21,932 nt of DNA from positions 1 through 21,932 of the forward strand of contig JAWCLG010000014.1 in assembly GCA_038851075.1 (NCBI GenBank), written 5' to 3'. Position 1 is the first letter of the stretch; the number at the start of each line of letters is the position of its first letter. The DNA comes from Candidatus Hadarchaeales archaeon (GTDB taxonomy: Archaea > Hadarchaeota > Hadarchaeia > Hadarchaeales > Hadarchaeaceae). This document shows, in pieces, positions 11,675 through 21,932 of this stretch. Below the pieces are notes generated by a model. That model worked only from the letters and a program-made list of their open reading frames with translations. It ran no database searches and was not told the origin of the DNA. The position numbers and the translations under genes were made by a program.

Positions 11675-13471
11675 ATGTCGGTAAAAACTGTTGGAGCGGT
11701 TCTCCTGGCCGGGATGCTGATCCTCGTCGTCGCGTTTCTCTTTATGAGTGCGGCTTTTCAAAAAGAGGTAAAGTTCGTCGAGGCGGTCAGCTATACAAGG
11801 CTTGAGACGGATGTGCTCTGGGATGGGAGCGCAAGATGCAGGTATGTCGTATGGCAGCCACCCTCCTACATCTCTTCATTCAATAAACTGATGGTGCAGA
11901 GGATAGGCGAGGATATAATCGCAAGCTCGTACGAAGAGAGCATAAGGAAATATTATGCGATGATGGGCTTTGAGATTGAGAACTTTTCATGCGATATATC
12001 GGGTATGGGGGAGAATGATAACTTCACGCTCACTTTCACGTGGACTGTCCCATTCTTTGCGAGGTGGAACGGGGAATCATGGGAGATCGAGCTTGACTGG
12101 GTCAACAGGGAGCTGGGCGCGGAAGACGCCATATCTGAGGGTGATTCGGAGTGGATTTTCATCAGGAGTCTGGCCAGAGGATCCGGGTGTGATTTTGGAG
12201 TCCATGTTTCGTATTCTACCGATTTTACTTTTCTCCCCGAAGGAGCGGAAAACGTTCGGCTTTCTTCAGACTACCACAGTTATGCGGATTACGGCGGAGG
12301 GTCTTATTCCGAGAGTTTTGTCTGGCTGCAGGAAGTGGACGGCAGAAGCGTCTTCGTTGATAATATGATTTCATTCACGGCCACCGAGAATGAGATGACC
12401 ATAACGGTGGACCAGATGCTTGCGGAATTTGCACCATCTTCAGTGTCTTATTCCGGTCAGGCTCCGGCCGGCTGGTCTTTTATGTATTCGCTTGAGTGGC
12501 CCAGGCTGGACCTCAAATACGGGCGCCCCCTGATGGAGAACTATCCGGTCAGACTGAATGGCACGTGGTACAGCATGACTCCCGCGCAGATACTTCGCTG
12601 CTCAGCCAAGTTTCTGCTGGACATATACAGCGGAGATGAGTTTTCAGCCCCTCAGCCCCCTGCCGCGGCAGAATGGCCGGGGCAGGAGGAAGGCGACTGG
12701 GAGACTTTTTGGAGTGAGCTGAGCAGAGAAGAGTATATATCGCTGGCCGCCCAGGCGTCGACCTGCGAGGTAATCCCGGAATGGTTCGACGCTCCGGTTG
12801 GCAGGATGAGACCGTCCGACCTCCTCTACACCTTCCTGAGGGTTATCTCTGAGTATAGAAAGTCGGGCTCGCTCCCTGACATGATCAATATCGCCCCGGT
12901 TCCGAGTGGTGAGGTGAGGTGGGGATCAAACAGAATTGGAGCGGACAACGCCTATTACCTTTTGTCGGACCCATACGTTGTCGTTGACGGGAGGAGAGCT
13001 CTTGAGGTTCTGGACAACTTAATCGACAATCTGGACAACAGAAAACTCGTGGAGGAGATCTGCAACTGGACCGGGTCGAACATAAGCTACGGGCTGTACT
13101 TCAGGCCTCCGACTTCCGAGGAGATGCTGGGGACCAGGCGCGGGCAGTGCAGGGACTTCACAAACGTTTATCTTGCCCTTTCCAGAAGCGCGGGAATACC
13201 TGCCAGGAGGATCTCGGGATGGATAACCTCAAGCTGGCAACCGCCGGCAGGATGGGAATTTGTTGTGACGACCACGCCAGATGGAAGGACGGTGTCCAGC
13301 CACGCCTGGGTGGAGGCGTTTGTGCCCGGGGAGGGATGGATTCCGCTTGAGCCACAGTCAAACCGTCCGGCTCTCTTTGTGGGTGAGCTGCCCTACGATA
13401 TTTACAGGAGCACCGAGCAGACATGGATTGGCGCGCTTGCCGGGTATGAAACGGCAGAGGGCCTTCTTTGA
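11675..13471 (+). CDS. Membrane-anchored transglutaminase-like cysteine protease-fold protein with pseudomurein-binding-repeat-like module
   Basis: N-terminal TM; GQCRDFTNVYLALSRSAGIPARRISG, SHAWVEAFVPGEGWIPLEP (Cys-His-Glu); PMBR-like SDLLYTFLRVISEYRKSGSLPDMINI. Confidence 0.85.
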   Translation: MSVKTVGAVLLAGMLILVVAFLFMSAAFQKEVKFVEAVSYTRLETDVLWDGSARCRYVVWQPPSYISSFNKLMVQRIGEDIIASSYEESIRKYYAMMGFEIENFSCDISGMGENDNFTLTFTWTVPFFARWNGESWEIELDWVNRELGAEDAISEGDSEWIFIRSLARGSGCDFGVHVSYSTDFTFLPEGAENVRLSSDYHSYADYGGGSYSESFVWLQEVDGRSVFVDNMISFTATENEMTITVDQMLAEFAPSSVSYSGQAPAGWSFMYSLEWPRLDLKYGRPLMENYPVRLNGTWYSMTPAQILRCSAKFLLDIYSGDEFSAPQPPAAAEWPGQEEGDWETFWSELSREEYISLAAQASTCEVIPEWFDAPVGRMRPSDLLYTFLRVISEYRKSGSLPDMINIAPVPSGEVRWGSNRIGADNAYYLLSDPYVVVDGRRALEVLDNLIDNLDNRKLVEEICNWTGSNISYGLYFRPPTSEEMLGTRRGQCRDFTNVYLALSRSAGIPARRISGWITSSWQPPAGWEFVVTTTPDGRTVSSHAWVEAFVPGEGWIPLEPQSNRPALFVGELPYDIYRSTEQTWIGALAGYETAEGLL

Positions 13472-14227: not shown

Positions 14228-14342
14228 ACTCGTAAATGATGTCTTGGTTTCTCCGGGCTTTTCAAGGAATTAAGCTGGGCAGAGGAACGTACCTAAATTT
14301 TTTATTCTGTGAGGTTGACATATACATGTGGATAAACTAAAA

Positions 14343-16601
14343 ATGAGCAGTATAAAAAAATTTTTTGTTATCTCGACTCTCAGCGTTTTAGTTACTGTAT
14401 TCTGCGTGTTAGCATATCTCCATTTCACTGGACAGCCTCAGAACAGATGTCCGGTCGCTTTTTTCAGTTATTTGCCTGAGTCCCCAACAACCGGGGACGT
14501 TGTTCGGTTCACGGAGAATTCTACAGATCCTGATGGGGAAGTTTTTCTCTGGCATTGGGATTTTGGAGATGGTACAACCTCTGATGTACAAAATCCGACG
14601 CACATTTATTCAACACCAGGATTTTACGTCGTAACGCTAACGGTCGAAGACAGCAAAGGAGCGAGAAACAGTTACACGCTGGTTTTGGAGGTTAGAGGTT
14701 CGGAGACTCCTCAGGATAATGATTCAGGTCGGCCTCCAACAGAAAATCAGGGAGCTGAAGGTTCGGAGACTCCTCAGGATAATGATTCAGGTCGGCCTCC
14801 AACAGTAAATCAGGAAAAAACTTTTCAAAATTTTGAGGAAGGAAACGGAACTCCGGGGGCATATTTCCAGAATATCTGGCACACTGCTTCAAGTTTTGAG
14901 AGTTTACTGGTCCACAGTGGCTCCAGGTCGATTAAAGTAACAACAGATGTTGGTGGAGGAACAATAAGAATCATGGCTGCTTCTCCTTCAGGATATTTCA
15001 ACTTGGAGAATGTGAGTGCTATAAGCGTATGGATTTATGATACGCAGGGAAATAACACCGTCCAGCTTAGATTAAAGGATATAGATGGTGACGGAGGACG
15101 CGGACCCGATGAAAATTATATATGGTCAACAATGACTTCCCGCGAAAACCAGTGGGCCAAAATAACATGGGACATGAGCTACTATCCAGATGTGGAAGGT
15201 CTGGACATGGATAAGATCTCTTCCATCGAATTATACATGTATTGGAATGGTACTTACTATTTTGACGATGTAACTTTCCTAGAATCCGGAACGGTCGAGG
15301 TCTGGATAAGCTCAGAGGATGGGAAATACAAGCTCACCAAGGTCAGGAATAAATCATTTGAAGAGGTAGGCAATTCTCAAGCGGATTATATCTTCGGCGT
15401 GGATCCGACAGTTACCTATCAATCAATACTGGGGTTTGGGTCATCTCTGGAATCATCGTCCTGCTATAATATGTCACTATTGAACAGTTCAACACGGGAA
15501 AGTGTAATCGAAAATTTGGTCAGTCCGGATACCGGTATTGGTATGAACTTGATGCGCATCTGCATAGGGACCTCAGATTTCACTGGAGAGGAATGGTACA
15601 CTTATGATGACATGCCAGAGGGACAAATCGATCCAAATCTTGAACACTTCTCGATAGCCAAGGACAGGGAGTATATAATTCCTGCTATAAAGATAGCGCT
15701 TCAGAAGAACCCAGAGTTGAAGGTATTTGCGTCTCCCTGGAGTCCGCCAGCGTGGATGAAGGATAGCAAGAGCATAACTGGAGGCGGAAGTTTGCTTAGA
15801 GAATATTACGAGGTTTATGCCAGATACTTCGTGAAGTTTATAAGAGCTTACGAAGCCGAGGGAATTCCAATATATGCCGTAACGGTCCAGAATGAGCCCG
15901 GATTCGAATGGGTCCACCCCACGTGTAAGTGGACGCTGGAAAACGAGAGGGATTTTGTGAAATATTATCTGGGCCCAGCTTTTGAGAGAGAGGGAATCTC
16001 TACAAAGATCTGGATATACGATTGGAACTTTGACCTCTATACGTGGCCTGACGAAATACTGGACGATGTGGAAGCGGCTCGTTACATAGATGGCACGGGA
16101 TTTCATCATTATGGGGGCGGTCCGGTTGCTATGACCTATCTGCATCAAAATCATCCGGACAAGCACATCTACTTCACAGAGGGCTCGACCTTTAACACTT
16201 CCGGGGCTGTTAAGATAATAAGCTATCTGAGAAACTGGGCCAGAAGCTACAATGCGTGGGTGACTCTGCTAGATGAAGATGGAAAACCAAATAACGGACC
16301 ATTTCATGCAAGCCCAACGTGTATAGTTCTCAGAAAAGATATGACCCTGAACTACAGGTATGATTATTATATGTACGGGCAGTTCATGAAGTTTATTTCT
16401 CGAAACTCGCTCAGGATATTTTCTAACGATGGGGATCAGACAGTTTCAAATGTGGCATTTAAGACACCAGATAAAAAAATAGTGTTTGTTATAGCCAATG
16501 CTGGAGATTCATCAAAATGTTTTAAAATAATTTACGCGAACAAGGCAATCTGGGCAAGCATAGCTCCCAAATCTGTAATCACCTTCAGATGGGATTTTTA
16601 A
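14343..16601 (+). CDS. Membrane-anchored PKD + carbohydrate-binding-like + glycoside hydrolase family 30 protein
   Basis: TM helix; PKD (STDPDG, WDFGDG, NPTHIYSTPGFYVVTLTVED); jelly-roll CBM-like segment ending GTYYFDDV; GH30 motifs YQSILGFG, RICIGTSDF, FASPWSPPAWMK, VTVQNEP (acid/base), YFTEG (nucleophile). ATG 14343 or GTG 14328. Confidence 0.92.
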   Translation: MSSIKKFFVISTLSVLVTVFCVLAYLHFTGQPQNRCPVAFFSYLPESPTTGDVVRFTENSTDPDGEVFLWHWDFGDGTTSDVQNPTHIYSTPGFYVVTLTVEDSKGARNSYTLVLEVRGSETPQDNDSGRPPTENQGAEGSETPQDNDSGRPPTVNQEKTFQNFEEGNGTPGAYFQNIWHTASSFESLLVHSGSRSIKVTTDVGGGTIRIMAASPSGYFNLENVSAISVWIYDTQGNNTVQLRLKDIDGDGGRGPDENYIWSTMTSRENQWAKITWDMSYYPDVEGLDMDKISSIELYMYWNGTYYFDDVTFLESGTVEVWISSEDGKYKLTKVRNKSFEEVGNSQADYIFGVDPTVTYQSILGFGSSLESSSCYNMSLLNSSTRESVIENLVSPDTGIGMNLMRICIGTSDFTGEEWYTYDDMPEGQIDPNLEHFSIAKDREYIIPAIKIALQKNPELKVFASPWSPPAWMKDSKSITGGGSLLREYYEVYARYFVKFIRAYEAEGIPIYAVTVQNEPGFEWVHPTCKWTLENERDFVKYYLGPAFEREGISTKIWIYDWNFDLYTWPDEILDDVEAARYIDGTGFHHYGGGPVAMTYLHQNHPDKHIYFTEGSTFNTSGAVKIISYLRNWARSYNAWVTLLDEDGKPNNGPFHASPTCIVLRKDMTLNYRYDYYMYGQFMKFISRNSLRIFSNDGDQTVSNVAFKTPDKKIVFVIANAGDSSKCFKIIYANKAIWASIAPKSVITFRWDF
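14696..14814 (+). repeat. Near-perfect in-frame tandem duplication (56 bp, 63-bp period)
   Basis: 14696-14751 and 14759-14814 differ at one base and encode GSETPQDNDSGRPPT(E/V)NQ twice. Confidence 0.95.
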
Positions 16602-16672
16602 ATCTGAAAGCGTTTGTCCAGGCCCAATATTATCTATTGGATTAGTCTTCAGCAGAACAGTGCGGCTGTTTT

Positions 16673-18400
16673 TTAAAAGGATGGGCGGCCCAAGGATTTT
16701 TGAAATACTATCTGGCTCGTGGGATCGTATACCAACTTTATTTCATCGCCCTCATTCAGTCCCAGAGCTCCTGTGATTGTTAGAGGGTCGCCTGCCGCCC
16801 AAGGTCCAGTGCCAACAGATTCAAGCACGGTAATTCCATTTTTTAATAATCTGAGACCAGATTTTTCAAGGGTGTCGCCTTCGTGGAGAAAAGTTATGGT
16901 ATCAGTGCTTATGAAGTTCGCAGCCGATGATACATGATAACCCAGGTTCGCCCCTGAGCGATTTGTTTCGTAAAAAAAGTCTGGTTGGTTGTCCATATTT
17001 GAGCCCCCGAGAAATATGAACACCTTACCGGTGTTGTCATACATTCCGTCCCAACTCCTCGCTCCAACTATCAGATCCGAGTAGCCATCACCGTTGACAT
17101 CCCCTGCTGACTTCAAAGACCCTCCGAAGTCAGTGTCCGATTTGTTTGATTCGTATGTCCAGTCCGGAATATTATCCATGGTTGGTCCTCCCCAGAATAT
17201 CCACGCCTTCCCCTCCGACCATTCTGAACTATACCATGCATAAGTTCCGACTGCAATGTCGGGGTATCTGTCCCCGTTAAAATCATTGCCTGTGGCAACG
17301 CACCATCCGAAGTGGCCGTTTACTAAGTCAGATACAAAGGTCAAATCAGGATATTTTTCTTGAGGGAGGCTGCTGCTCCCATAGAACACATATACTCTTC
17401 CGAGATTTTCATTATTCCAGCCCCAGCTTTGCGCTCCAACCACTATGTCGTCAAATCCATCTCCATTTAGATCAATCGTATCAATAGAAAATCCAAGCAT
17501 TGGATAGTTCGAGTTTACCCCCGATTCATAGTTATCTGTGCTAAGTCTAAGAACACAGTCGCGAGCGTTATTCATGGAATCCCCTCCGTAGTATATTGTT
17601 ACTATTCCGCGATACCACCACCAGTCCGGCTGACCGACTATAACGTCTGAGTATCCATCTCCGTTCACATCACCAGAAGCCACCGAAAATCCCAGTTCAT
17701 ACGGTCCATTGTAACTCGAATGCCAGTACCACTGAACATCGATTGTAACGTCAGGTTGTGCATCCATGGGATTTCCGCCGTAGTAGACGTATGCTCTTCC
17801 TTGGAGATTGGAAGAAGGATAAGGTTTGTAACAAGGTTGTCCGACTATAACGTCTGAGTATCCATCTCCGTTCACATCACCAGAAGCCACCGAATAACCA
17901 AAGTATGAGTTTGATCGAAGCACGTAGGATAGAGTGAGATCCGGTTGGTTATCCGGGTTAGGTCCTCCATAGAATATCCATACGTTTCCGGTATCAGTGT
18001 ATCCACCACTATCCCAACTCCTCGCTCCAACTATCAGATCCGAGTAGCCATCACCGTTGACATCACCAGTTGTGATGGAGACGCCTGTGTCACTGCTTGG
18101 TTGTCCGCACTCATATGTCCAGTCCGGGTTATTGTCTATTTCCCCACTACCACCTTTAAATAAGAAAACTTTTCCGGCCCAGTTGTTCCATCCAGGAGCT
18201 CCAGCCACTACTCCATCGTTTGATCTTGACCAGCCAGTTATTCTTATATCAACCAACACAAAAGATTTGTTGATATTAAATGAGTTCAGCAAAAGCAATA
18301 TGATCATTACACCGATGATTGCTAAGGCAATTAGAAAAATTGTTGCGACCACGGTAGAAACGCCCTTTTCTGAAAACAATTTTATATCACCATTTTTCAC
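16673..18400 (-). CDS. Type IV pilin-like protein with inserted FG-GAP (integrin-alpha-like) 7-bladed beta-propeller
   Basis: EKG/VSTVVATIFLIALAIIGV class III signal; six Dx(N)GDxxxD loops; seven GAP-type strands; C-terminal ITFLHEGDTL...WAAGDPLTI...IKLVYDPTSQIVF resembles archaeal pilins. GTG 18400 is preferred because the ORF-track start 18463 overlaps the upstream gene. Confidence 0.85.
   Translation of the reverse strand: MKNGDIKLFSEKGVSTVVATIFLIALAIIGVMIILLLLNSFNINKSFVLVDIRITGWSRSNDGVVAGAPGWNNWAGKVFLFKGGSGEIDNNPDWTYECGQPSSDTGVSITTGDVNGDGYSDLIVGARSWDSGGYTDTGNVWIFYGGPNPDNQPDLTLSYVLRSNSYFGYSVASGDVNGDGYSDVIVGQPCYKPYPSSNLQGRAYVYYGGNPMDAQPDVTIDVQWYWHSSYNGPYELGFSVASGDVNGDGYSDVIVGQPDWWWYRGIVTIYYGGDSMNNARDCVLRLSTDNYESGVNSNYPMLGFSIDTIDLNGDGFDDIVVGAQSWGWNNENLGRVYVFYGSSSLPQEKYPDLTFVSDLVNGHFGWCVATGNDFNGDRYPDIAVGTYAWYSSEWSEGKAWIFWGGPTMDNIPDWTYESNKSDTDFGGSLKSAGDVNGDGYSDLIVGARSWDGMYDNTGKVFIFLGGSNMDNQPDFFYETNRSGANLGYHVSSAANFISTDTITFLHEGDTLEKSGLRLLKNGITVLESVGTGPWAAGDPLTITGALGLNEGDEIKLVYDPTSQIVFQKSLGRPSF
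17049..18064. repeat. Two pairs of identical dispersed direct repeats within the FG-GAP gene
   Basis: 53 bp at 17049-17101 equals 18012-18064 (DVNGDGYSDLIVGARSWD). 54 bp at 17634-17687 equals 17841-17894 (SVASGDVNGDGYSDVIVG). Confidence 0.93.
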
Positions 18401-18414
18401 TTGAGTTTTTTGCT

Positions 18415-18990
18415 TTAAATATTTCTGCTTTTGAGCATTTTCGTTCCAATCGTTAATCCCCACACTGATGCAAACGCTGCAGATATGGTCTCAGGTATTG
18501 CCACACCTCTCCAGCTGAAAGCCCATGGGAGAGCTGCCAGCACGGCTATTGAAATGGAGAATGCACCAAGCCCTCCCGATCCTCTGAGAATCATTGCCGG
18601 GCCGAGGATGAGAAGCGATATCGGGAAAAGGGAGAAGAACGCCACAGAAACGTAGAAGTGTATTGCCCCTGCATCCTCGCTGAATATTCCTATGCAGGCC
18701 AGTGCTGCTCCTGCTGCTGTGAGAGCCAGCGATCCGGCCTTTCCAAGCTTGCTTTTGCTAAGTTCTCTCAGCACGCCAAGCCCGAATATAACTGTCATGG
18801 CGCCTGAAATCAGAATTCCGGTGTTGAATATGACAGCCGCGCCGCTCCTGGAGTAGTTTCCCAGATCACTCAGGGCATTTGAGTTCCAGCTGAACCACGG
18901 AGACAGAGCGATGGAGGTAAGTATGGCGGTGAACGCAACAGCCGGTATGGCTATACCACACACGCCTCCCGCTTTCCTTAGATCTGGCAT
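18415..18990 (-). CDS. DUF998-family membrane protein
   Basis: SPWFSWNSNALSDLG, IFNTGILISG, IGIFSED...HFYVSVAFF, AIPE; about 6 TM helices. Confidence 0.85.
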   Translation of the reverse strand: MPDLRKAGGVCGIAIPAVAFTAILTSIALSPWFSWNSNALSDLGNYSRSGAAVIFNTGILISGAMTVIFGLGVLRELSKSKLGKAGSLALTAAGAALACIGIFSEDAGAIHFYVSVAFFSLFPISLLILGPAMILRGSGGLGAFSISIAVLAALPWAFSWRGVAIPETISAAFASVWGLTIGTKMLKSRNI

Positions 18991-19004
18991 CCAAACCGCC
19001 GAGC

Positions 19005-19373
19005 TTAGCCCTCTTCCTGCCCTGAGGCTTCAGATTCAGTTTTTTCTTCGGAGTTTGATTCACCAGATGCTGCTTCTTCTTTCTTCTCCTCAGCCTGTGG
19101 TTCAGATTTTGGTTCTTCTGCAGTTGTTTCTTGGGGAGCTTCGCCGGGTTCCTCCTTTTTAGCGCTCTCCGGAAAGAGCTCGAGGTACAGCCGTTTAAGC
19201 TCCTCCTCCTTCTCCTTCTGGGCTTTTGCAGATGGCTTTGGCAGGTTGAGCTTCACTCCGGCCTGCGCAAGCTCGCGCTTGTACCTGGCAAGCTTGGCGC
19301 TCTTCATCTGCTGTCTGGCCTTCACAGCGGCCTTCCCTGTCTTTCTAGTCAGACCAATCCCTCTTTCTCTCAA
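19005..19373 (-). CDS. Hypothetical protein, basic N-terminus and acidic disordered C-terminus
   Basis: K/R-rich helical first half and E/S-rich tail; fits the gene spacing. Start uncertain (TTG 19373). Confidence 0.72.
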   Translation of the reverse strand: MRERGIGLTRKTGKAAVKARQQMKSAKLARYKRELAQAGVKLNLPKPSAKAQKEKEEELKRLYLELFPESAKKEEPGEAPQETTAEEPKSEPQAEEKKEEAASGESNSEEKTESEASGQEEG

Positions 19374-19460
19374 TATTCCTGCCGATTTATATCATTAGGG
19401 GAACCCTCCGTTTGTCATTTTTTGACAATGTTGACGAGCATTTTATTTCGGTTTTCACGT

Positions 19461-19904
19461 TCAACCGTGCCGGCCCTTCCACTGCAGCGGGCATCGCCCC
19501 TGCCTACTTTTTCTTCTTTCTCCCTGCCGGCCGCCACGGGACTTCCCGTTTTTTCGGCGACTCTCGATAAGGAATGCTGCTGGAGGTACCATCAAAACCG
19601 AGATTATCCCTGGCAACACGAACAGGGGACACATAGTAATCAGGAGCCCGGCGGCGCTGATGAGCCAGCATACCCATGAGAGCAGGGCGCAGAGCGCAAG
19701 AGGGCGCTTGAAGAAAGGTTCTGACTTCATTTCTTGAGCTTTTATAAGGTGGGCGGGCACTCCCTCAAAAACCAGAGGACCAGTATAGCCACAGTCCTTA
19801 CAGGCATACCAGTTTGCAGCATGATCTCCAACGTATGTGCTCGCTCCCCCCATGATGGCATAGCCGATCCTGTTGGAGCCACAGCGCGGGCACGTCTTCG
19901 TCAT
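19461..19904 (-). CDS. Zinc-ribbon membrane protein
   Basis: CPRCGS...YACKDCGYTG followed by two TM helices and a basic tail; GGTGA upstream. Confidence 0.75.
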   Translation of the reverse strand: MTKTCPRCGSNRIGYAIMGGASTYVGDHAANWYACKDCGYTGPLVFEGVPAHLIKAQEMKSEPFFKRPLALCALLSWVCWLISAAGLLITMCPLFVLPGIISVLMVPPAAFLIESRRKNGKSRGGRQGERRKSRQGRCPLQWKGRHG

Positions 19905-19914
19905 CGCTTTTCAC

Positions 19915-20256
19915 TCACCTCATCAAGTAATGCGCGTAGTTGATCAGAGAGTAAGAAAAGAGCAGACCAAAACCGAGCACGATGCCCGCACCAACGATCA
20001 TGCCGGATCGCATCTGAGGGCTGATTTTCTCTCCGAATATTGCTCCCGAGATAAGCGAGATTGAAATCAGCGCGAGTCCGGATTCAACAAGGATCATCCC
20101 AATAACAACTGTTAACAACGCAAACCACTCCCTCATGATCGGGCCAAATATCGCGAACACGCCAGCACCGGCAAAGAGCATAATAATTCCGGCAACTGTA
20201 AACGCACCGCACCTTTCGGCTATTTTGATGCATAAGATCTCCAGCTCATCTATCAA
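19915..20256 (-). CDS. Hypothetical three-TM membrane protein
   Basis: Three hydrophobic segments; GGTGA RBS before a TTG start; co-oriented with short spacers. Confidence 0.72.
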   Translation of the reverse strand: MIDELEILCIKIAERCGAFTVAGIIMLFAGAGVFAIFGPIMREWFALLTVVIGMILVESGLALISISLISGAIFGEKISPQMRSGMIVGAGIVLGFGLLFSYSLINYAHYLMR

Positions 20257-20273
20257 CTTTATTCACCCTCGCT

Positions 20274-21548
20274 TCACCTTGGCCTTGAACGCGCCCTTGA
20301 AAACCACACCATGATGCTGGCGATTACAAGGGCGACCATGAGCACTGGGATCAAGATTGTATGCTCGGATCCGGTTCCCCCGGTTTGAGAGGGCTGCACA
20401 GCTGGCGAACCTATGGCGTAGAGTCTGCCGTCCCAAGCGCCAACGTAGATGGTGCCGTTTGCGCCTATTGCGGGGGATGAATCCACCCTGTAACCAATGT
20501 TATAAATCCATTTTACTTCCCCATTTTCGTTCAGTGCGTACAGGGCATTGACTCCCCAATCTGAATAATGACCATGGACTCCAAAGTAAATTGTCCCATC
20601 TGCTCCTAATGTTGGCGAAGAGTCGATGTGGTCACCACGGACAATATATCTCCATTTTTCGGAGCCATCTGGACGCAGAGCGTAAAGAACGTCCCTGCTT
20701 CCGATGTAAATGGCACCATCCGCTCCAATTGCCGGGGAAGATAGGATGCAACTTCCGGTGGGATAAAACCATCTCATTTCTCCGTCTGGGGAGATAGCAT
20801 ACAGGTTCTCATCATCAGAACCGAAGTAAATCGTGCCGTCAGGACCTATTGATGGAGAGGAGAAAATTGGCCCATTCACGGCATAAAACCACTTGAGCGT
20901 GCCGTCCGGGTTCAAAGCGTATAGTCTGTTGTCATTTGAACCAAAATAAATAGTCCCATCCGGTGCGATGGCTGGTGAAGAACCAATCGGAGCCCCCGTC
21001 GTATAAAACCACTTGACCGTAGCTTTCACGCCGTTATCATAAATTGCATAAAGCTTGTTGTCCCCAGAACCGAAGTAAATAGTTCCATCAGGAACCACAG
21101 CAGGGGATGAAATAATGTCTGCTCTAGCAGTATAAACCCACTTTAATGTTCCGTTTGGGTTAAGAGCATAGAGGTTATCGTCCCAAGAGCCGAAGTAGAC
21201 CGTGCCGTCTGAGCCAACTGCTGGAGATGAAACAATCGCCCCTCTGGCTTCGAATGCCCACTTAAGTGAGCCGTTATCATAGAGAGCATAGAGCTTGTTG
21301 TCATAAGAGCCAAAGTATATAGTGCCATCTGAGGCTATTGCTGGAGAAGAATAGTAAATCGCGCCGCCAGTTTGGTAGCACCACTGCAGCACGTTGTCCT
21401 GAGCACCGACGTAAGGACTTCTCCCCGTGTTCTGCAGATCATGCCTGAACTTCGGCCATGGCGAATTCATGAGCTCAGCGCCCACAGTGGAAACAAACAC
21501 CAACGCGATAAATTCAAACATTCCAAACAGAAGCATATCTCTTCTCAT
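20274..21548 (-). CDS. Secreted 8-bladed PQQ-like/BamB-type beta-propeller with C-terminal membrane anchor
   Basis: Signal peptide, SPWPKFRHDLQNTG, eight SSP(A)IxxDGTIY(F)GxxDxxLYA repeats, linker, TM helix and RARSRPR tail; GGAG RBS. Confidence 0.9.
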   Translation of the reverse strand: MRRDMLLFGMFEFIALVFVSTVGAELMNSPWPKFRHDLQNTGRSPYVGAQDNVLQWCYQTGGAIYYSSPAIASDGTIYFGSYDNKLYALYDNGSLKWAFEARGAIVSSPAVGSDGTVYFGSWDDNLYALNPNGTLKWVYTARADIISSPAVVPDGTIYFGSGDNKLYAIYDNGVKATVKWFYTTGAPIGSSPAIAPDGTIYFGSNDNRLYALNPDGTLKWFYAVNGPIFSSPSIGPDGTIYFGSDDENLYAISPDGEMRWFYPTGSCILSSPAIGADGAIYIGSRDVLYALRPDGSEKWRYIVRGDHIDSSPTLGADGTIYFGVHGHYSDWGVNALYALNENGEVKWIYNIGYRVDSSPAIGANGTIYVGAWDGRLYAIGSPAVQPSQTGGTGSEHTILIPVLMVALVIASIMVWFSRARSRPR

Positions 21549-21557
21549 TTTCTCCTC

Positions 21558-21932
21558 CTAAGAACCGAATTGGTGCTCAATGCCGTTCGAATCATACATA
21601 TAAACTGTGGTGGTGAGTGTGGTATTGTCAAGTGAAATGTCTTGAATTACGATGGGAAAGATACCAAGACCACTGCCCTTTATTGGATTACACCTTCTCC
21701 AGGTGTTATTCAGATAGACTTCTGCTTCCTCGTAGTATCTAGTTTTTTTGGTCGGGGTCGTAGAGATATCTTCTGACCAAGGTTGAGTTGTTTCCTCCTC
21801 AACCACGTGCACCCTCCTCGCAGGTATCCCCAGCGAATTGCACAGGCTGACGTACAGGTTTGCAAAGTCGCTGGCGTCGCCTCTCGCCTTCCATATTATC
21901 CCACCGTCGCTTCTCCAGTGGCATTGAGAGCT
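21558..21932 (-). CDS. Transglutaminase-like domain protein, C-terminal part (runs off window), catalytic residues degenerate
   Basis: The frame is open to the window edge. Manual translation gives SSQCHWRSDGGIIWKARGDASDFANLYVSLCNSLGIPARRVHV...YYEEAEVYLNNTWRRCNP. Confidence 0.8.
   Translation of the reverse strand, partial: SSQCHWRSDGGIIWKARGDASDFANLYVSLCNSLGIPARRVHVVEEETTQPWSEDISTTPTKKTRYYEEAEVYLNNTWRRCNPIKGSGLGIFPIVIQDISLDNTTLTTTVYMYDSNGIEHQFGS

Follow-up and report, generated by a model that had tools for sequence, protein, structure and literature searches.

A predicted archaeal type IV pilin split by a complete FG-GAP propeller in a Hadarchaeales genome

Can a type IV pilin hold an entire adhesion-type propeller inside its own fold? 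The question is raised by one gene in the window, the 21,932-nt contig JAWCLG010000014.1 (positions 1–21,932) of a Candidatus Hadarchaeales archaeon (GCA_038851075.1). A single open reading frame (ORF) occupies the minus strand at 16673–18463 (596 aa at its longest), and 575 codons run uninterrupted from a GTG at 18400, from which we number residues throughout. A preliminary description, made from the DNA letters alone, had read this frame as an archaeal pilin whose globular part is interrupted by an integrin α-like FG-GAP propeller. The comparisons reported here confirm the nested arrangement, which is far more than a chance likeness, and support a predicted Pilin_N/DUF1628-type pilin split by a whole FG-GAP propeller.

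The evidence begins at the N-terminus. By the FlaFind-type rule, a class III signal is a short charged leader with K or R at −2 and G or A at −1, followed by a hydrophobic stretch. The protein starts with ...SEKG|VSTVVATIFLIALAII, which is of class III type by this motif, as first proposed. Cleavage, predicted after G13 (K at −2, G at −1), would remove the leader MKNGDIKLFSEKG (18362–18400) and expose a hydrophobic helix, α1, of residues 14–40 (VSTVVATIFLIALAIIGVMIILLLLNS, 18281–18361). The helix is covered by positions 1–36 of the Pilin_N profile and by a profile of short pilins described below, and the AlphaFold2 (AF2) model places a helix at residues 16–40. The G|VS.VV site is common to this protein and five pilin-like ORFs of its own genome (L001–L005), and of residues 14–25, 10 out of 12 are the same in the candidate pilin L001 (MAFFT alignment, manual count).

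To identify relatives of the other end, we compared its last 83 aa (P0001) with 1.84 billion representative proteins at E ≤ 0.001. Seven matches were returned: the protein itself, three repetitive proteins and three short proteins (P0004–P0006). The repetitive ones (P0003, 1756 aa, E 1.7e-18 over 11 stretches; P0007; P0008) lack pilin features and were set aside as repeat-driven. The short proteins, of 128, 125 and 133 aa, match with E values of 1.7e-13, 1.1e-7 and 6.5e-5 and 38–51% identity in this search (51% for P0004), and the match covers their residues ~54–128; taken over the outer domain, identity ranges from 36 to 51%. All three pass Pfam Pilin_N (42.4, 35.6 and 58.3 bits) and carry ...KG|ISPAV-type leaders, so the suggested resemblance of the last ~80 aa to the globular part of a pilin holds.

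When a hidden Markov model (HMM) of P0004–P0006 is run against the ORF, it matches in two abutting tiles with 102.9 bits overall. Model positions 3–57 fall on residues 7–61 (31.0 bits, E 1.3e-11) and positions 54–127 on residues 498–570 (70.0 bits, E 1.1e-23). As the search that found the three proteins was made with the C flank, a match of the second tile was to be expected; the first is independent of that choice. MAFFT alignment of the protein with P0004–P0006 and two short pilins of its own genome opens a single 440-column gap, between W57 and S498, in all five short pilins. At the junction, ...ITLEDW-SSTS-VTLYHGGGDTL of P0004 corresponds to ...IRITGW-SRSN[propeller]ANFISTD-TITFLHEGDTL of this protein, and W57 aligns with the W or F that ends β1 in P0004, P0005 and P0006. 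Two tiles and one gap are what a pilin split by a propeller, as claimed in the preliminary description, looks like in these alignments.

Structural models show a strand order in keeping with this site of the split. The AF2 model of P0004 comprises a helix (12–34), β1 (46–53) and β2 (58–65) with a four-residue turn between them, and five further strands; its outer domain has a predicted local distance difference test (pLDDT) score of 90–97. Among PDB folds, the four closest to this model are subunits of archaeal type IV pili or filaments (8fj5, the best, 8rey, 8fk7 and 8gi2), and the P0004–P0006 profile matches the Haloferax volcanii type IV pilus subunit 8fj5_A with an E value of 2.4e-6 over profile positions 4–117. 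The AF2 model of the full protein has a strand at 52–57, then the propeller, then six strands at 501–569 (block-mean pLDDT 71–90) in the order seen in P0004. The Atlas model of residues 495–575 is closest to a Pilin_N cluster (TM 0.77), which is a lead only, and a complex prediction of the C flank (495–575) with the N flank (12–62) scored 0.30 against a mark of 0.32, which weighs on neither side. The linker and strand β1 correspond to residues 41–61 (FNINKSFVLVDIRITGWSRSN, 18218–18280), with the first HMM tile reaching residue 61, and strands β2–β7, the rest of the Ig-like outer domain, to residues 498–575 (STDTITFLHEGDTL...LVYDPTSQIVFQKSL, 16676–16909), as supported by the second tile, the identity to P0004 and the AF2 model. 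By sequence, the propeller thus interrupts the predicted pilin Ig-like outer domain at its β1–β2 hairpin turn.

The insert itself, residues 62–497 (16910–18217), is identified as a seven-bladed FG-GAP propeller by sequence and by fold. Pfam FG-GAP matches the whole protein with 179.2 bits (E 8.5e-54, cut-off 22.1) in six stretches and FG-GAP_3 matches the ORF at E 2.4e-16; an NCBIfam scan of the protein gives FG-GAP-like domains and no other match. The regular-expression motif count is seven GAP-type strands, seven FG-type strands and six D-x-N-x-D-x-x-x-D loops (residues 113–121, 175–183, 244–252, 310–318, 373–381 and 434–442), in keeping with the seven strands and six Ca-binding-type loops counted by eye before. 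The AF2 model (53-row alignment; mean pLDDT 84.9, pTM 0.78) is mostly above 90 in the propeller. Its best Foldseek matches in the PDB are integrin α heads (E down to 3e-19, TMt up to 0.68), and all 57 PDB sequence matches are integrin α chains (best E 1.2e-17). The closest sequence relatives are FG-GAP proteins with 31–41% identity and 65–85% query coverage, bacterial wherever a source is named among the best 120 listed. The gene is the sole FG-GAP ORF of its genome, which is 88% complete (1.0 Mb, 29 contigs).

Both ends of the insert are those of a complete propeller. Blade 1 has no FG strand and begins at the GAP strand VVAGAP (64–69), and a lone FG strand, LGYHV (486–490), follows blade 7; the insert thus starts mid-blade and ends with the missing strand, as had been noticed. 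This terminal strand completes blade 1, so that by the order of its motifs the ring is closed by its own two ends, and the seven blades are predicted to form a closed ring. Such Velcro closure is not specific to insertions. By analogy with integrins, in which the Ca sites of the propeller are structural and make no ligand contact, the six loops probably take up Ca2+ in a structural role. All six are of Ca-binding type by motif, and one has R in place of the G of DxNxDGxxD.

Where does the protein start? Since the DUF998 gene directly upstream ends at 18415, the remaining start candidates are GTG 18400 and TTG 18379. A putative Shine-Dalgarno-like hexamer, GGTGAT (18386–18391, minus strand; read by eye), lies 6 nt 5' of TTG 18379, which would give the leader MFSEKG. 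Either start yields a short leader with ...SEKG at its end, followed by VSTVVATIFLIALAIIGVMIILLLL. At the other end of the frame, the ORF listing places the stop codon at 16673–16675. The N flank (18218–18400), propeller (16910–18217) and C flank (16676–16909) lie within a few codons of the boundaries originally drawn. In the database, the called protein (P0002, 527 aa) begins only at residue 49 (18254–18256), as does its Atlas record, so that both lose the leader and the helix. With this truncation and a sub-threshold Pfam Pilin_N score, the pilin nature of the protein escapes automatic annotation.

Does the genome encode what a pilin needs? The prepilin peptidase and pilus machinery on which the first interpretation depended are present. 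There is one Peptidase_A24 frame (C3:24274–25041, 45.3 bits), in which both Asp motifs that we take to characterise A24 prepilin peptidases are visible. T2SSE, the family of PilB-type ATPases, has four matches over the cut-off, and on contig C7 a PilC-type T2SSF frame lies beside one of T2SSE. At E ≤ 1, Pilin_N matches nine times; six of these matches exceed the cut-off, and five have the same G|VS.VV site as this protein. On contig C8, a pilus-type locus comprises an ATPase gene, the gene of the short pilin L001 and then those of L002, L006 and L008.

What would the protein do? We favour, with a probability of about 0.65, a modular Pilin_N pilin that carries its propeller (~436 aa; 440 aa extra relative to the short pilins) in the β1–β2 turn, is processed and is assembled into a pilus, on which it displays a binding head. 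The A24 prepilin peptidase would cut after ...EKG (G13), and the helix would let the protein enter one of the PilB/PilC-type assembly systems of the cell. Within a pilus, or a short stalk resembling one, the pilin would be a tip subunit or one of low abundance, and up to six Ca2+ ions would stiffen the propeller, which would face outward as the binding head. Because β1 leaves the linker off the core helix, topology suggests that the β1–β2 turn, where both propeller ends meet, should lie away from the pilin core. Our best guess for the ligand is a glycan or polymer surface, which is favoured because other pilin modules encoded in the genome are linked to CBM, PKD, LamG, PQQ-propeller and glycosidase-like domains. 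The texts on bulky nested or grafted bacterial pilins argue that these are tip subunits, as for ComZ (PMC6561018) and PilB (PMC8179133). Archaeal pilin outer domains, according to the text of a study of such pili (PMC10334743), are very variable in size and of little weight for packing, so incorporation along the filament would also be possible.

Several observations weigh against this assignment. Pfam Pilin_N (PF07790) reaches 13.7 bits (E 0.12), below its cut-off of 25.2, and aligns over profile positions 1–36 only; when just the last 90 aa or the first 88 aa are scanned, no Pilin_N match appears at E ≤ 10, only noise. We attribute the low score to the insert, which breaks the contiguous model: in P0004 the Pilin_N profile spans residues 8–80 and straddles the site equivalent to the insertion point. 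This is a limit of detection, by which automatic annotation would miss the pilin. The AF2 pLDDT is below 50 for residues 41–60 (linker and β1), so that packing of β1 on the C-terminal domain is modelled only weakly. The gene lies outside the pilus loci and follows the DUF998 membrane-protein gene. A full-length word search, in which 7577 of 8000 scored candidates pass, lists no PF07790 protein among the 119 non-self entries of its best 120, and no orthologue is found in 60 relatives, including the only same-genus genome (86% complete). As the gene is so far a singleton, conservation gives no support for function. Finally, the phrase under which the protein was first described, a pilus-incorporated, Ca-dependent adhesin, is what we too would infer from the sequence, and its middle term may overstate the role of the Ca sites, since the equivalent sites of integrins are structural.

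These points leave room for other readings of the same architecture. The main rival retains processing and gives up attachment: once processed, the pilin module would act as an anchor or short stalk that fixes the propeller at the cell surface, where it would trap substrate to be taken up or to be degraded by glycosidases close by, akin to the class III-signal sugar-binding proteins of the Sulfolobales bindosome. The joining of pilin modules to CBM11/CBM30, PKD and LamG in this genome and a weaker pilin-like match to a GH2-like domain speak for it, as does a gene that stands alone, convergent with a GH30-PKD glycosidase gene. However, the protein keeps a full Ig-like pilin outer domain beyond the helix, no ABC transporter genes lie beside its gene among the ORFs scanned, and we know of no FG-GAP propeller that serves as a solute-binding protein of an ABC importer. 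We consider substrate capture unlikely, while giving it more weight than any other alternative; the text of a census of type IV filaments (T4F) proposes that widespread substrate-binding proteins that bear class III signals (SPIII) functionalise T4F machineries (PMC13705601). Clearly less probable is an uncleaved type II membrane anchor, in which the helix is a plain signal anchor, the pilin likeness reflects ancestry and no present pilin function, and the product is an FG-GAP surface protein that is tethered to the membrane and ends in an Ig-like domain. Such a protein would be compatible with the Pilin_N score below cut-off, the poorly modelled β1 region, the position outside the pilus loci and the want of conserved orthologues. 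It sits poorly with a ...KG|VS.VVATI..LIA site that, together with the next 12 residues, is nearly identical to that of short pilins in the pilus loci of the genome, and with the presence of an encoded prepilin peptidase. Both pilin tiles are moreover kept (31 and 70 bits), which argues for continuing selection on the pilin module.

Could the gene be an artefact, either a chimeric assembly or a decaying fusion without a functional product? It is known from one contig and from one database cluster with a single member, its start was called at residue 49, and the repeats of the propeller DNA break Logan contigs. Against this, the stretch recurs in the Logan contigs of three sequencing runs, all from a single study with the label hot springs metagenome; one of them, X1, may be the source sample. 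Contigs of two runs bridge both flank–propeller junctions (~18217 and ~16909) with 0 mismatches (records 7 and 1 of X1, records 13 and 9 of X2) and at similar depths of 6.5–8.2. Contig breaks in the runs occur only at short internal repeats of the FG-GAP DNA, so the assembly is less reliable for the order of the inner blades than for the junctions. Two such repeats, at 17634–17687 and 18012–18064 (GDVNGDGYSD loops), show about double the contig depth in X1 and break the per-run contigs. The frame is open across all 575 codons, and the GC content at third codon positions (GC3) is 0.38 in the N flank, 0.45 in the propeller and 0.41 in the C flank (genome GC 0.523), similar enough for the three parts to resemble a single unit. 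The insert is placed exactly at a hairpin turn, and no part of the propeller is missing, its closing strand included. An artefact is thus very improbable, and a pilus-assembled pilin with a binding head remains the reading that we prefer.

Is the split pilin alone in its genome? Checks for other pilins with inserted domains, which the preliminary description had called for, revealed one in the same genome. L002 (C8:3132–4451, minus strand) passes Pilin_N with 39.8 bits and is split as well: model positions 5–84 match residues 8–96 and positions 105–128 match residues 416–439, with ~320 aa containing three Glug repeats between them and the last pilin strands, GDVITIIYRPANQLLVQYTVP, at the C-terminus. 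Its layout resembles that of bacterial ComZ, which has a β-solenoid ahead of the last strand. A further case, P0129 (477 aa), comes from a public record labelled Chloroflexi metagenome-assembled genome; its pilin is of archaeal type, so the contig may be mis-binned. Model positions 4–84 fall on its residues 2–99 and positions 83–128 on residues 425–477, and the ~325-aa insert consists of six ~45–50-aa repeats (H[IV]SGD[IV]YA[IV]AY..., manual count) that match no Pfam family. Nested Pilin_N pilins thus recur, with differing inserts in differing loops, and these two proteins together with the present one indicate that archaeal Pilin_N domains tolerate large insertions at several loops.

Extra domains are also found in this genome behind an unbroken pilin module. 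This holds for L003 (PKD, CBM11-like, Laminin_G_3), L005 (PQQ propeller, PKD, CBM30), L006 (CBM30, CBM11) and L007, a GH2-like barrel protein that matches the pilin HMM at E 1.5e-6 and Pfam Pilin_N with 21 bits, below the cut-off. By locus, four large proteins have this layout, at C3:2814–6593, C3:7319–10120, C8:5369–7471 and C3:76067–78385 (L047–L050): each begins with an intact pilin module, behind which PKD, CBM11/CBM30, Laminin_G_3, PQQ-propeller or GH2-like domains lie. One 1-Mb genome thereby holds a repertoire of pilin-borne carbohydrate-binding and glycosidase-like modules.

A bolder reading, which we think rather doubtful, would make the Pilin_N Ig-like outer domain a general scaffold for loop grafting. 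Binding domains would have been spliced independently into at least three loops (FG-GAP between β1 and β2 here, the six-repeat domain at ~β4/β5 in P0129, GLUG between β4 and β6 in L002), with the termini of each insert meeting at an outward turn. Such subunits could polymerise along the whole filament, and the pili would act as multivalent, Ca-stiffened 'fishing lines' for polymers or partner cells. If true, this would amount to a pilus-borne analogue of the cellulosome scaffold.

How new is the arrangement? Because its HMM match is split and the alignment has one gap only, at the β1–β2 turn, the protein joins the nested pilins, which are an architectural class and not a homologous family. Thermus thermophilus ComZ and the type II secretion pilin GspK likewise have a large extra domain nested inside a pilin fold, and the texts describing them argue for a tip position on steric grounds (PMC6561018, PMC8179133). 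Their folds are bacterial and unrelated in sequence to Pilin_N, in contrast to the archaeal Ig-like pilin described here. The insertion sites also differ, as far as those texts describe them: the ComZ β-solenoid lies between the last two strands and the GspK α-domain between β3 and β4, whereas the FG-GAP propeller lies between β1 and β2. The preliminary description was not aware of any account of this nested architecture. Bacterial nested pilins as such have been described (ComZ and GspK, in the texts of PMC6561018 and PMC8179133), but an archaeal FG-GAP version seems to be without a description in the literature searched. The main texts searched describe neither a domain nested in an archaeal pilin nor FG-GAP in a pilin; 'insert' and 'propeller' have 0 occurrences in Makarova 2016 (PMC4858521), as do 'FG-GAP' and 'propeller' in the main text of the 2026 T4F census (PMC13705601). 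The survey of bacterial modular pilins in PMC8179133 relies on IPR012902, a bacterial motif, and its text contains 'archaea' 0 times.

Other systems share parts of the design. In Streptococcus sanguinis, a pilin module presents a metal-binding (PilB, vWA) or lectin-type (PilC) adhesion module on a type IV pilus, but according to the text of PMC8179133 these modules are grafted, while the propeller is nested. The closest solved relative of the pilin module is H. volcanii PilA2 (8FJ5), also of Pilin_N type, which differs in being a plain 145-aa major pilin without an insert, as the text of PMC10334743 describes it. Sulfolobales bindosome proteins and the SPIII adhesin-like proteins of archaeal T4F loci likewise place an extracellular functional domain on a class III signal and a hydrophobic helix; in the text of PMC13705601 the functional domain follows the helix, whereas here the protein's own Ig-like pilin domain is kept and split. 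The tip adhesin PilY1/PilC, as summarised in PMC8179133, resembles this protein in presenting a Ca-binding β-propeller by a pilus; unlike it, PilY1 is not a pilin, docks on minor pilins and has a propeller of family IPR008707, for which this protein has no Pfam match.

The likeness to integrin α (α5, αV, αIIb) is confined to the seven-bladed FG-GAP propeller and its DxNxDGxxD-type loops. Thigh and calf domains, a C-terminal transmembrane segment and a β-subunit partner are absent, and the loops occupy six blades as against the three to four Ca sites of integrins. We accordingly rejected an identity as integrin α subunit: only the propeller aligns, the rest is pilin, and the protein is at most like an integrin head.

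Type IV pili are known to gain functions by the addition of modules to pilins, by grafting in bacterial PilB/PilC and by insertion in ComZ/GspK. The present gene is a compact candidate for polymer attachment or harvest by a small-genome hot-spring archaeon, and a possible natural template for displaying folded domains on archaeal pili.

Searches for a second FG-GAP-in-pilin protein were limited to words or patterns, and for that reason they argue only weakly for its absence. The pilin profile run against longer proteins gave four matches, none with FG-GAP; the profile of alignment A1 matched only the protein itself; and an Atlas search by features and structure returned bacterial FG-GAP clusters only. 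In a single-protein search of metagenome contigs, 0 of 119 stretches were confirmed. Two loci from searches with A4 were examined and rejected. One, from metagenome contigs (L045), is a high-GC bacterial subtilase/FG-GAP gene whose pilin-like pattern lies in an unrelated, adjoining small ORF; the other, from genome contigs (L046), is a Bryobacteraceae FG-GAP match only. Among relatives, the C-flank query found only weak matches (E 0.0017–0.005) in 2 of 60 other genomes. FG-GAP is present in 7 of 65 other genomes of the phylum, and none of the 48 ORFs of at least 150 aa at the FG-GAP loci of all seven matches the pilin HMM (best E 0.41).

The surroundings of the gene differ on its two sides. 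Upstream, a string of genes on the same (minus) strand occupies 18415–21932: the DUF998 gene (18415–18990), a K/E-rich 122-aa ORF, a zinc-ribbon membrane protein (19461–19904), a 113-aa ORF and a PQQ/BamB-like propeller protein (20274–21548). As only 14 nt (18401–18414) separate the DUF998 gene from the GTG of the pilin gene, the string may be co-transcribed with it. On the other side lies the convergent gene of a GH30 + PKD glycosidase (14328–16601, plus strand) with a GC content of 0.44. Together, this gene and the nested pilin gene (14328–18400) have a lower GC content, 0.43–0.47, than the genome (0.523), and may be a jointly acquired islet of surface proteins. Near it, 11675–13471 (plus strand) encodes a protein of 598 aa that ends in a transglutaminase-core domain (E 4.8e-19) and is likely another surface or secreted protein.

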